A DNA stretch of 55,858 nt from a virus (lineage: Duplodnaviria; Heunggongvirae; Uroviricota; Caudoviricetes). Under the pieces are notes generated by a model, which saw nothing but the letters and a program-made list of their open reading frames with translations, was not told the origin of the DNA and ran no database searches. The stretch lies in IMG/VR virus record IMGVR_UViG_2660237930_000002; one strand, written 5' to 3'. Shown one piece after another: positions 52,202-54,991 of this stretch. The position numbers and the translations under genes were made by a program. The first letter of the stretch is position 1; each line of letters starts with the position of its first letter.

Positions 52202-52978
52202 TTATGAGCCATTGGTAATCGCACCCATGACAATTTGAAAGAGTTCTTCTGCTCGATTAGTGGAGCCAATTGCACCTCTTTCTCTCGCCATTCTCTTGTG
52301 CTCTGGTAGATCTGAGGACGCATAGATCATAAAAGGAGTTTTGTCTCCCATTGCGCGTAATCTTTCTAGTAAGACATAACCTTCTTGCGCCCCTTCTTTG
52401 CGATCCATATCCGAAATAATAGCTGCAAACTTATTTGTTTTTAACAATTCTAAGGCTTCGTCAGTTGAAAGAGCTAAAGCGAACTCTATTCCCTGTGCCT
52501 CAAATGCCTGTCTTTCGTAAACATTATTTTCTGGTCGATCATCCACCCATAAAATACGATTTCGCCATTTTTCATGCTTACTCTGCCGTTTTGCATTGGA
52601 TACAACGTTGACGATTTTTCGCAGTTGGCTTTCAGTGACCCCTGCACTATTTTCAGGCTGTTTTGCTGTGGCGGCGGTCAATGATGCTGCTGTAGCTATT
52701 TGCGCTCTTAAAAAATTATTTTCATCTTTGAAATCTGACGGCCCGTAAAGCTTATTATGATGTTTCGCAACAAGCCAGAGAAAGCCAAGAAACACAATGA
52801 CAGGAAAGAAAACCATGAAATAAATAAGGGGAGCTATATGCTCTGATAAGCCATTACCAAAGCCAACGACGAAAGAGGCAAATCCATAAACGAGAACAAT
52901 AAAGAGTGCAATGATACCAAGAGGGCTTTTGGTAAATCCTATTGCAGTTTCAGCAAATTTCTCTGGTTCCATATCCAT
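52202..52978 (-). CDS. Membrane-anchored protein with C-terminal CheY-like receiver (REC) domain
   Basis: Two predicted TM helices then a domain matching CheY landmarks by eye (ILWVDD; IISDMD; FMIYASS; EHKR); AT-rich. Confidence 0.55.
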   Translation of the reverse strand: MDMEPEKFAETAIGFTKSPLGIIALFIVLVYGFASFVVGFGNGLSEHIAPLIYFMVFFPVIVFLGFLWLVAKHHNKLYGPSDFKDENNFLRAQIATAASLTAATAKQPENSAGVTESQLRKIVNVVSNAKRQSKHEKWRNRILWVDDRPENNVYERQAFEAQGIEFALALSTDEALELLKTNKFAAIISDMDRKEGAQEGYVLLERLRAMGDKTPFMIYASSDLPEHKRMARERGAIGSTNRAEELFQIVMGAITNGS

Positions 52979-53065
52979 CCTCAGTATTGCTCATAACACA
53001 GTTAAGTTGTATTAGATCAGACCTGATCTGACAATTACCGGCTATTTATAAAGGTATCTGTCAGA

Positions 53066-53461
53066 TTACATCTGGCTTAAGTTTTTCTCATCCCAGATGT
53101 GCTTTCCATCAAGTAACGTTTCCATCGGCGTTCGGCCACTGCACATTTTTCCCTGATGGGTTCGCTCATTATTATAGTGAACCCGCCATTCATCAAGAAC
53201 CGATTGTAATGCTTCAAGATCATCATATAACTTTTTGCGGAACGTCACCTGATAAAACTCGTTCAGTATCGTTTTATGGAACTGCTCGCAGATACTATTG
53301 GTCTTAGATGACATTGCTTTCGTTTTCGTATGCTCAATATCATTTATCGCCAGATAAAGCTGGTAATCATGCTGCTCCACTTTACCGCAATCTCTTGGTG
53401 TATTGAGAGGCGGGTTATAAAATAAATACTGATACCATGAGGGCGGATCAATCGTGGTCAT
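53066..53461 (-). pseudogene. Transposase remnant (C-terminal part of a DDE/rve integrase-core transposase, IS481/IS3-like)
   Basis: ...NSICEQFHKTILNEF...WRVHYNNERTHQGKMCSGRTPMETL matches the C-terminal end of rve-domain transposases; no N-terminal HTH or full catalytic core. Confidence 0.6.
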
Positions 53462-53476
53462 AGTATCAGGTCATTC

Positions 53477-54991
53477 TCATGGGTTTATTGCGTCCCTGAA
53501 GATGACGTCGCTGACCATCTCTCCTCCAAGAAAATCGATCAACATATTCGAGTTTTCAAGGTCTTCTCTGGTCAATGCCCCGATTGCTTGTCCAACTACT
53601 ACCTCCCAAGGTTTTTTACACTCAACAATAGCACAGACGAGTTGGCGGATTTTCTTGATCTTCTTGTGACGCAATCGGTCGTTCGATTCCATTAGTTTTG
53701 CAATCAACGCTATGTCGGAGTGTGTTTGATTATCCTCAACCCATTTTTTGGCTGCGTCTACAAATTCCACCCATGTAACATTCATTACTGCAAGGCATGA
53801 ATCAGTCAAAAGAACATTTTCGATAGCGTAGCATCGTAAGCGATAGCGTTTAAGAGGTAGGCGATGTTCAAGCGACTCGTTGATTACACCATCGCCATCA
53901 CGAAGGGAAAAGGCGATTGGATTGTCATAGAGTGTACTAAGGAGGTCTACGCAAAAATCCTCAAGTTGACTCTGTTGATCTACGCTACCTGCTAGTACGG
54001 GAAAGATTTTTATTCGACCCTGTGATGTTCTGGCCGCTTGTTGCCAGACTCGTTCGTCGTCCTCTCCTTCCAAAATTAATGCAGCGTCTTCGCTAAGAGA
54101 AAGCGATAGGGGGTGCCCGAAGAATGGTGCAATCTTTCGAAGTTCATCGCTGGCCGGTATCAATGAGATTTCATTCACTGCAAAGCTCTTCGTGCCGATT
54201 GATACATATGGGGAGGCGGCAAGAGAACAGACGAGCGGGGAACTATGGGTGGATAAGCATATGGCAATACTGTTCGCGTGTGTTCTAAATTCGTCGAGCA
54301 TACTGATTATCAGCTTGCCCAGTCTAGCTTGGAGGTCGGGGTGCAGATGTACATCAGGCTCATCGAGGAGGAGTACGTTGAATTTCTCCGGATCTATTGT
54401 GTCGAAGAAATAGATGATTTCCGCGGCTAATGCAACCGCTTCCGATTCACCGCTACTGATTTGGGCCGGATCAATAATCTGACCATCTACAAGTGATCGA
54501 AACTCATAATCGACATTACCCATCTCGAGCGAAATGTTAGTGAGAAGCTGATTAATTTTACTTAATCGGTCTGTCTGAAAGTTTCGCGTTAGATCAGTTC
54601 GAATTTCCGGAGTATTGGCAAGTCGACGTAAGTAAAGCGTCTCGGCCTCGCGAAATAGCATAGCCGATGCAGCTTTGAAGTTGCTTGCCTGATTAACTGC
54701 CCGAGTGTGCCTCAGCCATTCGGGGTTGTCGCTCATATTTGTGAGGACGGTGCCATCACGCTTGAACGATCCTGCTCGCTCTGGACTTACATACCGGACA
54801 TAAAATTGCTGCTTGTTCTGGCTGATTGTTTGTTCGATATCACGAAGGAAACGACTTTTTCCCGCACCGTTTCGGCCCATAATTATGTTGATGTTGTTTA
54901 AGCCGTAAAGTCGGCCAATTTGGCTAGATAACTCGCTTACTTTCAAGATTGTAACTCCATTTTTTGTTGCCACATACGATATCAAATACAC
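53477..54991 (-). CDS. OLD-family-like ABC ATPase with C-terminal Toprim-like domain (anti-phage defence candidate)
   Basis: Walker A GRNGAGKS, ABC signature-like SSGESE, Walker B LLLDEPDVHLHP, then ILEGEDDERVW and RDGDG (Toprim-like E and DxD); probable GTG start. Confidence 0.6.
   Translation of the reverse strand: MYLISYVATKNGVTILKVSELSSQIGRLYGLNNINIIMGRNGAGKSRFLRDIEQTISQNKQQFYVRYVSPERAGSFKRDGTVLTNMSDNPEWLRHTRAVNQASNFKAASAMLFREAETLYLRRLANTPEIRTDLTRNFQTDRLSKINQLLTNISLEMGNVDYEFRSLVDGQIIDPAQISSGESEAVALAAEIIYFFDTIDPEKFNVLLLDEPDVHLHPDLQARLGKLIISMLDEFRTHANSIAICLSTHSSPLVCSLAASPYVSIGTKSFAVNEISLIPASDELRKIAPFFGHPLSLSLSEDAALILEGEDDERVWQQAARTSQGRIKIFPVLAGSVDQQSQLEDFCVDLLSTLYDNPIAFSLRDGDGVINESLEHRLPLKRYRLRCYAIENVLLTDSCLAVMNVTWVEFVDAAKKWVEDNQTHSDIALIAKLMESNDRLRHKKIKKIRQLVCAIVECKKPWEVVVGQAIGALTREDLENSNMLIDFLGGEMVSDVIFRDAINP

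Follow-up and report, generated by a model that had tools for sequence, protein, structure and literature searches.

A decayed islet at the 3′ end of guaA, distinct from the adjoining phiV10-like prophage, carries a probable compact PARIS/OLD-like ATPase-nuclease

The PARIS system consists of the ABC ATPase AriA and the DUF4435 Toprim protein AriB, and clades in which the two are fused as one AriAB gene exist (Rousset et al. 2022, PMC9122126; Burman et al. 2024, PMC11464382). In class 1 OLD proteins (P2 Old; Thermus scotoductus OLD, PDB 6P74), an N-terminal ABC ATPase and a C-terminal Toprim domain occupy one chain, which is encoded by a stand-alone gene with no conserved helicase or RT partner. 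Published IMEs and ICEs target the guaA 3′ end (PMC5704250, PMC8627217).

The window analyzed here is a 55,858-nucleotide stretch of DNA (IMG/VR record IMGVR_UViG_2660237930_000002, Caudoviricetes). In the original prediction, positions 52202-54991 were taken as AT-rich cargo at the right end of a prophage and as a candidate anti-phage defense locus. The three minus-strand ORFs are present as described, and the block is indeed AT-rich (GC content 42.9%, compared to 48.9% for the prophage and 52.6% for the chromosome). The block is probably best explained as a decayed guaA islet, not phage DNA, whose main gene encodes a compact PARIS/OLD-like defense ATPase-nuclease. The features of the region are as follows.

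51893-51907: orphaned guaA tail with a stop codon supplied by the islet (ATT GAG TGG GAG TAG)
51895-51903, plus strand: att core copy TGAGTGGGA, at which the phiV10/TL-2011b-like prophage has its right junction and the islet its guaA-proximal one
51904-55211, no strand: AT-rich islet, decayed remnant of a guaA 3′-end site-specific element
51950-51977, plus strand: islet-borne terminator hairpin, a 12-pair stem followed by a T-run
52202-52972, minus strand: orphan 2-TM + linker + REC protein, 256 aa when counted from the second Met (258 aa in the ORF list)
53066-53389, minus strand: C-terminal fragment of an IS481-family transposase, a pseudogene separating the two modules
53430-53468, minus strand: terminator-like hairpin, immediately 3′ of the ATPase stop codon and trailed by a U-rich stretch; end of the conserved ATPase module
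53477-54946, minus strand: intact gene for an ABC ATPase with a probable DUF4435/AriB-type Toprim domain, 489 aa (from profiles, homologs, residues and models)
54947-55211, minus strand: upstream region of the ATPase gene and distal arm of the element, conserved at the DNA level (Shine-Dalgarno GGAG, 54955-54958)
55212-55220, plus strand: distal copy of the att core TGAGTGGGA, with the native guaA tail (AATGA) after it
55251-55278: native guaA terminator, 3′ of the distal core copy and the AATGA tail

The islet that encloses the block is ca. 3.3 kb long, and its distal boundary is the core copy at 55212-55220. Four copies of the core occur in the window (0.36 expected), three of which flank the elements. 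Homology to the phage stops at 51903, and the match to prophage-free islet genomes begins at 51893. The block had been placed between the lysis-operon terminator and attR; the right core of the prophage is located to the left of the block, at 51895-51903, and comparison of the junctions identified the presumed attR (55212-55220) as the islet's own distal junction. The order in the window is thus a tandem one, guaA - prophage - islet - yfgI. The islet terminator is positioned directly 3′ of the substitute guaA stop codon (seen in L001), and this hairpin replaces the native guaA terminator in islet genomes without the prophage. A search of Rfam with the islet terminator returned a Qrr match below threshold, which was judged to be due to chance.

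The islet was found in 28 of 5,426 complete E. coli genomes. Twenty-two of these feature the arrangement guaA-islet-yfgI with no prophage, and their islets are identical to the copy in the window; the other six have both elements. The same islet is located at guaA in K. pneumoniae (97-99% identity). A comparison with related guaA prophages had been proposed to establish what occupies this slot; in the record of the related prophage TL-2011b the slot is empty, and the phage end runs directly into yfgI. No homolog of the ATPase was present among 50,697 phage records, and none was found on plasmids. Because the islet occurs alone in 22 genomes, the phage occurs without the islet, and the ATPase has no phage homolog, the block is not prophage cargo. 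Independent of the prophage, it forms a small chromosomal islet, now decayed, where guaA ends.

The ATPase gene had been predicted to encode ca. 504 aa (53477-54991). The gene itself was retained, but its start was reassigned to the TTG codon at 54946, which has GGAG 8 nt upstream; the resulting length of 489 aa agrees with that of the family and with the NCBI annotation. The ribosome-binding site, start codon, and terminator are conserved. The terminator hairpin (-17.3 kcal/mol, z = -5.0) is kept in Enterobacter, Serratia, and P. aeruginosa, with one compensatory pair. DNA homology of the locus extends from 53403 or 53417 to 55225 (84% in Enterobacter, 74% in P. aeruginosa), and the conserved module ends ca. 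60-80 bp past the stop codon, where the IS fragment starts. A sigma-70 scan of the upstream region yielded no convincing promoter. The description of the locus as possibly decayed is apt for the IS481 scrap but not for the ATPase gene, which is intact, full length, and in possession of all its catalytic residues.

Profile searches with the protein gave matches to AAA_15 (E = 5.5e-14; 53 bits, cut-off 32.1), AAA_21 (45.6 bits, cut-off 27), and ABC_tran, and the first two of these profiles each matched all full-length family members (59/59). The Walker A, signature, Walker B, and H-loop motifs are invariant, as are the Toprim residues E293/D296 and D350/D352 across the family; the ATPase and Toprim residues are kept down to 25% identity. 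Only ca. 75 residues (~59-134) separate the Walker A lobe from the signature motif, and there is no long coiled coil. The C-terminal domain is a Toprim domain, most likely of the DUF4435/AriB/OLD type. For the window protein, the match to Pfam DUF4435 fell below threshold (E = 0.08 for the whole protein and 0.016 for the domain alone; 13-15 bits, compared to a gathering threshold of 27); in the family, this profile matched 12 of 59 full-length members at E ≤ 0.01 and 17 of 27 isolated C-terminal domains at E ≤ 1. OLD-like_TOPRIM (PF20469) had no match in the window protein and weak matches in two of the 59 family members (best E = 2.7e-4), and a profile of the C-terminal domain returned nothing meaningful from PDB sequences. 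Fold searches using structure models agreed with the ATPase-Toprim assignment, and 281 residues of the full-length model align with the retron Eco8 OLD nuclease. The relation of the C-terminal domain to AriB and OLD is visible by fold only.

Among the defense profiles, the PADLOC AriAB model matched 59 of 59 family members (best E = 7e-29), with the match of the window protein confined to positions 220-524 of 694 (51 bits). The PADLOC matches comprised AriAB/AriA, PDC-M01A, PtuA, and GajA; those to GajA and PtuA had E-values of 1e-9 to 1e-18, and the NCBIfam PtuA and Eco8 models matched at 1e-7. The closest characterized relatives of the ATPase are all anti-phage proteins and, by structure, are AriB and OLD. 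The AAA_15/AAA_21 profiles, the invariant Toprim residues, and the fold searches thus bear out the earlier description of an ABC ATPase joined to a Toprim domain in the order found in OLD and GajA. As far as sequence can indicate, the protein is most likely a single-chain PARIS/OLD-like abortive-infection nuclease, and homology and context suggest an anti-phage activity for this subfamily.

More than 850 homologs of the ATPase share 66-94% identity; clustering at 50% gave 614 family representatives, and a cluster with 255 member sequences matches the window protein exactly. In Klebsiella, Enterobacter, and Serratia, the gene forms the distal end of guaA-linked islets together with its own upstream region and terminator. 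In P. aeruginosa (CP075851) a Trb-type conjugative element ends with it, a STAND NTPase being its neighbor. The distal junction consists of ATTGATAGC directly followed by TGAGTGGGA in E. coli, K. pneumoniae, Enterobacter bugandensis (degenerate), and P. aeruginosa, and is succeeded in these four species by each one's own guaA tail. At the guaA-linked islet of Serratia marcescens, which contains the ATPase gene, the core search located the guaA-proximal copy only and no distal junction. The occurrence of guaA 3′-end elements in several genera, along with the published status of this site as an IME/ICE target (PMC5704250, PMC8627217), speaks for a site-specific guaA element, and the locus does sit at an integration hotspot; a literature search on E. 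coli guaA as a defense hotspot found nothing relevant.

In alphaproteobacteria the gene occurs alone, and its neighbors are always different. In Sphingobium and Mesorhizobium it is found among housekeeping genes, a setting that would also fit a non-defense role. Over seven distinct contexts, the neighbors were an unknown 302-aa protein, HipBA, nSTAND, or none, and no conserved partner or helicase was present beside it; the ATPase is a solo gene in every context examined. The proteins in the variable slots of the Enterobacter and Serratia islets gave no informative family. The GC content of the ATPase gene is below that of the host in six of six genomes compared. At the amino-acid level, the E. 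coli and alphaproteobacterial proteins are ~80% identical, an unusual degree of conservation for an immune gene. The K. pneumoniae copy is split by an IS3-family insertion.

The gene at 52202-52972 was expected to encode a membrane-anchored receiver-domain protein, and two conserved TM helices and a match to Pfam Response_reg above the cut-off (E = 1.8e-7; 31.7 bits, cut-off 30.2) confirm this. Its homologs (67-92% identity) are distributed across gamma- and betaproteobacteria, and D144, D145, D188, T212, K226, and the TM segment are invariant in 20 of them. In the E. coli and Klebsiella proteins, an Asp replaces a nearly invariant Gly two residues past the acceptor Asp. The protein has no output domain, the remainder being the 2-TM segment, and no histidine kinase gene adjoins it in seven contexts; the gene is solo in all seven and has been widely transferred. 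PADLOC gave no match for this protein or for the transposase fragment. The best guess is that it is a phosphorylation- or ligand-controlled membrane effector. The intervening 131-aa ORF matched NCBIfam transpos_IS481 (NF033577; E = 9.3e-23) at profile positions 206-283 of 284 only; the DDE transposase is therefore incomplete, and NCBI annotates the fragment as a pseudogene missing its N-terminus. This ORF had been read as a transposase tail of ca. 130 aa. Its end is an IS481 C-terminus, but its first ca. 25-30 codons cross the ATPase terminator hairpin.

That the three genes are morons at the right end of the prophage, traveling with the phage and shielding the lysogen, is barely credible. The block does directly adjoin the prophage, and the distal arm of the islet contains a 23-nt motif (55132-55154) that resembles the phage P arm (a score reached by 2 of 1,000 shuffles) as well as a further core copy; because of these two features, excision between the outer sites could in principle take the islet along. 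The proximal arm does not resemble the phage P′ arm (the score is reached in 437 of 1,000 shuffles). The moron reading is contradicted by the identical islets of the prophage-free genomes and the near-identical one of K. pneumoniae, by the same phage end without an islet in TL-2011b, and by the end of phage homology at 51903 and the missing ATPase in phage records. It is very improbable, too, that the three genes, along with a helicase or other partner since deleted, are what is left of a Gabija or class 2 OLD multi-gene system, even though the GajA models match the ATPase and, as the IS481 fragment attests, some DNA has gone missing between the two genes. The ATPase and TM-receiver genes are never neighbors in the contexts read beyond the E. 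coli/K. pneumoniae islet (14 contexts, seven per gene): the latter is solo elsewhere, and the former lacks both a conserved neighbor and a helicase. Moreover, in three other genera the ATPase module stops with its own terminator, the very position at which the IS scrap begins. The three genes were consequently not accepted as a combination, nor was the proposed deletion of a partner such as a helicase, as the module has a natural end.

A service to the integrative element itself, be it the exclusion or destruction of competitors for guaA, an addiction-type stabilization, or the processing of element DNA, is an unlikely function for the ATPase-Toprim protein. It would accord with the gene's fixed place as the last one, next to the distal att arm, both in four enterobacterial genera and in the P. 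aeruginosa conjugative element, with the overlap of its upstream region and the att-site arm, and with a conservation that is high for a defense gene and an absence from phages and plasmids. However, the gene has stayed intact in islets devoid of any mobility gene, alphaproteobacterial chromosomes have it on its own, and its closest characterized relatives are all anti-phage proteins. The notion that the block is functionless debris, i.e. remnants of an old element drifting towards loss, is distinctly unlikely: the ATPase and TM-receiver ORFs are full length here with all invariant catalytic residues, and the ATPase is identical to a cluster of 255 members and has conserved expression signals. 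In favor of debris are the IS481 scrap and missing integrase, the split K. pneumoniae gene, the Asp at the nearly invariant Gly of the TM-receiver protein, and the rarity of the islet (28/5,426).

The preferred reading, a decayed islet with a defense gene, builds on the observed anatomy, prophage independence, solo status of both genes, domain identities, and catalytic-residue conservation. An integrative element targeting the last guaA codons by way of the core TGAGTGGGA would have inserted here, supplying a substitute guaA stop codon and terminator. This element would then have decayed to two unrelated single-gene modules split by the IS481 scrap, and a phiV10-like phage with the same core would have integrated afterwards into the reconstituted guaA end, resulting in the present order; parsimony argues for this sequence of events. 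Module 1 (53403-55225) would represent the conserved terminal module of guaA elements, with an upstream region, a TTG-initiated gene, and a hairpin terminator, and module 2 would be an orphan 2-TM + receiver protein that travels alone. By analogy to PARIS, OLD, and Gabija, the ATPase head may act as sensor and switch. Upon an infection cue, it would license the fused Toprim nuclease to cut tRNA or DNA, a trigger and a substrate that are likewise modeled on those systems. The cutting would abort the infection or destroy incoming elements, protecting the host and the carrier element.

The 489-aa proteins are the smallest fused AriAB/OLD-like proteins seen in this analysis, and a well-populated, uncharacterized ABC-ATPase/Toprim subfamily has been delimited (~600 representatives, nearly all about 490 aa). 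A wider proposal is offered tentatively, and as a whole it is doubtful. The 489-aa proteins may constitute a distinct compact single-chain PARIS/OLD branch (no coiled-coil scaffold, sub-threshold DUF4435) whose gene, across Proteobacteria, has a fixed place as "guardian" by the distal att arm of integrative and conjugative elements that target guaA; the 2-TM + receiver protein may represent a novel membrane effector that stands alone at mobile-element hotspots; and a guaA phage could occasionally capture the islet via the tandem cores and the phage-like arm motif. The present results correct the natural but wrong inference that genes beside a prophage end are phage cargo, and they illustrate how unrelated elements become stacked when a single att site (the 3′ end of guaA) is used in tandem. 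They contain no categorically new mechanism. If active, the self-contained 1.8-kb module would be a convenient minimal model of how an ABC ATPase controls a Toprim nuclease in the absence of the PARIS scaffold. The TM-receiver gene, as a second conserved solo gene, is worth a phage or plasmid challenge.

In comparison to known systems, the window protein has the AAA_15/AAA_21-type ABC ATPase of PARIS, but it is 489 aa long, whereas AriA and AriB together have ~770 aa, and its match to the AriAB profile is not full length. Where AriA has a coiled coil and the IS1/IS2 insertions, the window protein has ca. 75 residues, and the insertions from which the hexameric scaffold is built are absent. Further hallmarks of PARIS are its activation by anti-restriction proteins (Ocr) and the cleavage of tRNA. 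Because it is without the coiled-coil insertions of the PARIS scaffold, the PARIS mechanism (AriB release) cannot apply literally; the domains are fused, so an AriB-like release of the nuclease from a scaffold is impossible. The protein shares its one-chain domain order with class 1 OLD, with catalytic residues intact, and its gene likewise stands alone, with no helicase or RT partner in seven contexts. It differs from that class in its Toprim domain, which is nearer to AriB, in its shorter length, and in the scarce PF20469 matches of its family; also, Old is a gene of P2, whereas this ATPase family was not found in phages. Gabija GajA and the ATPases of retron Eco8 and Septu (PtuA) have a homologous ABC ATPase core. 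Gabija has the UvrD-like helicase GajB, and none is present in the islet or related loci; neither the RT with msDNA of retron Eco8 nor the PtuB HNH partner of Septu appeared in the contexts read. Unlike the known guaA elements (GIsul2, the Brucella suis IncP island, and the Mesorhizobium guaA ICEs; PMC5704250, PMC8627217), the E. coli islet has no integrase and no transfer genes of any kind. With these elements, and with phages of the phiV10/TL-2011b type, it shares the target (the last guaA codons), the duplication of a short core, and the restoration of the guaA C-terminus, and its terminal module is the same as that of the P. aeruginosa conjugative element.

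The position of the 3.3-kb block (51904–55211) was considered together with guaA and the prophage, and the features concerned were as follows.

11711–13288: guaA
about 13285–51903: prophage, phiV10/TL-2011b-like, 38.6 kb
13481–14731: tyrosine integrase gene of the prophage
52202–52972, minus strand: ORF of the membrane-anchored receiver (TM-receiver) protein, matching Response_reg
131 aa, minus strand: IS481 transposase remnant ORF, matching the IS481 model
start 54946 (TTG), minus strand: largest ORF, ABC ATPase and Toprim, 489 aa

The block is a distinct islet of 3.3 kb lying between guaA and yfgI, because likeness to phiV10-type and TL-2011b phages ends at 51903, TL-2011b lacks the block, and other genomes carry it without the prophage. 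In the TL-2011b record, which includes host flank, the same phage end is followed directly by the native guaA tail and yfgI, and no counterpart of 51904–55211 was found in this phage end or flank. The block was present in 28 of 5,426 complete E. coli genomes. In 22 of these, the prophage is absent, the match begins at window position 51893 inside an intact guaA, and the gene order is guaB-guaA-TM/REC-IS scrap-ATPase-yfgI; prophage and block occur together in only six. The original prediction had placed these genes as prophage right-end cargo before attR. The prophage's right junction in fact lies to the left of the block, and what was taken for attR is the distal junction of the islet itself.

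The 9-bp core, TGAGTGGGA, forms the final codons of guaA and is found at 13276, 51895 and 55212; counting one within a phage gene, the window contains four copies (0.36 expected by chance). That fourth, exact copy (35496–35504, inside the large phage ORF 34708–37179) is probably a chance occurrence. The islet swaps the end of guaA for GAG TAG and adds a new terminator (51950–51977), with the native guaA tail and terminator pushed out to 55221–55278. At attL, the prophage provides guaA with a substitute end (GAA TGA), and GGTA(T/C)-type motifs repeated in both of its arms (13276–13480 and 51780–51903) look like integrase arm sites. In the most economical history, the islet would have arrived first, and the phage would then have entered the reconstituted guaA end.

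The same islet occupies guaA in K. pneumoniae at 97–99% identity. There (locus L016, 3766–6496), an IS3-family insertion at the equivalent of window position ~54305 breaks the ATPase into fragments of 214 and 274 aa, so this lineage is losing the gene. The ATPases of Enterobacter bugandensis (93% identical) and Serratia marcescens (89%) also reside in guaA-linked islets. The genes between guaA and the ATPase differ within this pair: one islet has a 302-aa protein without assigned function, and the other a HipA-type toxin with an HTH protein and a 390-aa protein without assigned function. In P. aeruginosa, an 80%-identical gene comes last in a Trb-type conjugative element (TrbL, VirB8, CagX, TrbI, DUF2274) and adjoins a 1,341-aa HTH-STAND NTPase. 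The latter (L003–L005, 9885–13910; weak nSTAND_NTPase5 match) is convergent with the ATPase at the element end and is likely a second accessory or immune gene of the same slot.

DNA likeness of the E. coli locus to those of Enterobacter (84%) and Pseudomonas (74%) was confined to 53403/53417–55225, a stretch that takes in the core, ~265 bp upstream of the gene, the gene itself and a hairpin. The distal junction in E. coli, K. pneumoniae and P. aeruginosa reads ...ATTGATAGC joined directly to TGAGTGGGA, followed by each species' own guaA tail. The core is degenerate at the Enterobacter junction; in Serratia, a core search of the locus gave the guaA-proximal copy only, and no distal junction was located. 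The pattern is the signature of site-specific integration, and the islet is what is left of an integrative element that targeted guaA. The guaA 3' end is a known target of such elements, including GIsul2, a Brucella island and Mesorhizobium ICEs (PMC5704250, PMC8627217). A 23-nt motif common to the islet distal arm and the phage P arm (score reached in 2 of 1000 shuffles) is consistent with related integrases; the arm comparison found no likeness between the proximal arms.

The gene content originally predicted was largely right, in that the three minus-strand ORFs are present in 52202–54991 with the expected domain matches. The block is also AT-rich as claimed (GC 42.9%; the prophage has 48.9% and the chromosome on the left 52.6%). 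The presumed transposase tail aligns with the final ~80 positions of the IS481 transposase model (9e-23, NCBIfam) and is an IS481 C-terminus, except for its first 25–30 codons, which are read-through across the ATPase hairpin. The proposal of a three-gene, partly deleted system was not borne out: the ATPase and TM-receiver genes stand alone in the other contexts read and adjoin in no islet but that of E. coli and K. pneumoniae, where the IS481 scrap separates them. In Mesorhizobium and Sphingobium, the solitary ATPase gene is set among housekeeping genes. Across seven distinct contexts, no recurrent ATPase neighbor was found, and none contained a helicase, the example given of a deleted partner. 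The conserved ATPase module stops at its own hairpin (53430–53468; -17.3 kcal/mol, z -5, conserved with one compensatory pair), where the IS fragment begins; thus, nothing suggests a lost partner.

The domains predicted for the ATPase-Toprim protein were upheld, and its length was revised from ~504 to 489 aa. The start was placed at TTG 54946 (GGAG 8 nt upstream) because DNA alignment, NCBI annotation and family length (487–490 aa) concur. Close homologs number more than 850, and clustering at 50% gives 614 family representatives; nearly all full-length members have 480–500 aa. The ORF matched AAA_15 (5.5e-14), AAA_21 and ABC_tran; its best anti-phage library matches were PDC-M01A, AriA, the fused AriAB model, NsnB, PtuA, AbiLi and GajA, and NCBIfam gave only far sub-threshold matches to PtuA and retron Eco8. 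AAA_15, AAA_21 and the PADLOC AriAB model (best 7e-29) were matched by all 59 family sequences examined, Pfam DUF4435 (E ≤ 0.01) by 12 and OLD-like_TOPRIM by two; among isolated C-terminal domains, 17 of 27 matched DUF4435 at E ≤ 1. All six best Foldseek matches were AriB or OLD C-terminal regions.

In a family alignment extending to 25% identity, the invariant residues were N26, K30 and S31 (Walker A), the signature Ser of SSGES, D195, E196 and P197 (Walker B), H202, Q206, H234 and S235 (H-loop), and, in the Toprim domain, E293 and D296 (EGEDDE) and D350 and D352 (RDGDG). With only about 75 residues between the Walker A lobe and the signature motif, the protein lacks the AriA coiled coil and insertions. 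It belongs to the OLD/PARIS superfamily as a compact, single-chain member. The gene is intact and, by homology, would encode a variant of an already known kind of defence protein.

No homolog was found in 50,697 phage records. The sole match in the plasmid collection was the islet-bearing, 4.9-Mb E. coli record NZ_CP134663.1, which is evidently a chromosome and hence mislabeled in the database. In each of the six genomes compared, the ATPase gene had a lower GC content than the flanking host DNA, which indicates horizontal acquisition.

The TM-receiver ORF (258 aa as first listed) barely passed the Response_reg threshold (31.7 vs 30.2 bits). Its two-TM segment is strikingly conserved, all phospho-acceptor pocket residues of the receiver domain are invariant, and neither a kinase nor an output domain is present; our guess is a regulated membrane effector. 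Residue 190 of the 256-aa protein, two past the predicted phospho-acceptor Asp, is Asp (SDMDR) in E. coli and K. pneumoniae and Gly in 18 of 20 aligned homologs, a substitution that could alter or disable signaling. Homologs (67–92% identity) occur in Klebsiella, Kluyvera, Acidithiobacillus, Pseudomonas, Dickeya, Pectobacterium, Vibrio and Nitrosomonas. The settings of this likewise solitary gene vary: between core genes, beside a P4-like primase and a NERD/SEC-C protein, or, in Vibrio, in a region crowded with small ORFs, insertion sequences and toxin-antitoxin pairs. In Vibrio cyclitrophicus (L013–L015), the many small unannotated ORFs and TacA/GNAT and ParE/Phd pairs look like a chromosomal cassette array. 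The Pseudomonas cavernicola homolog (L031, 3553–4922) lies ~1 kb downstream of overlapping adenosine-deaminase-family and Ham1-like (ITPase) genes, an unusual pairing. On Rhizobium phaseoli plasmid NZ_CP013578.1 (L026, 4276–8805), a 1,509-aa protein annotated "SAV_2336 N-terminal domain-related" contains an internal domain with 44% identity to the receiver part; its operon also encodes a MoxR ATPase and a trypsin-like peptidase, an arrangement resembling NTPase-based conflict systems.

On the model of PARIS, OLD and Gabija, the ATPase-Toprim protein would dimerize through its ABC head with ATP, and this head would sense an infection cue or act as a switch responding to it, after which the fused Toprim would cleave tRNA or DNA, halting the infected cell or the invader. 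This sensor-nuclease scheme seems the most likely. The fixed place of the gene beside the att arm of guaA elements would also permit a role in competition between elements rather than against phage, which we regard as unlikely. Under the sensor-nuclease scheme, the Toprim, being fused, could not be freed from a scaffold, unlike AriB of PARIS; activation would therefore proceed by conformational change within the oligomer. Although the 489-aa protein matches neither the full merged AriAB profile nor DUF4435 above threshold, merged AriAB (PMC9122126, PMC11464382) is its nearest kin.
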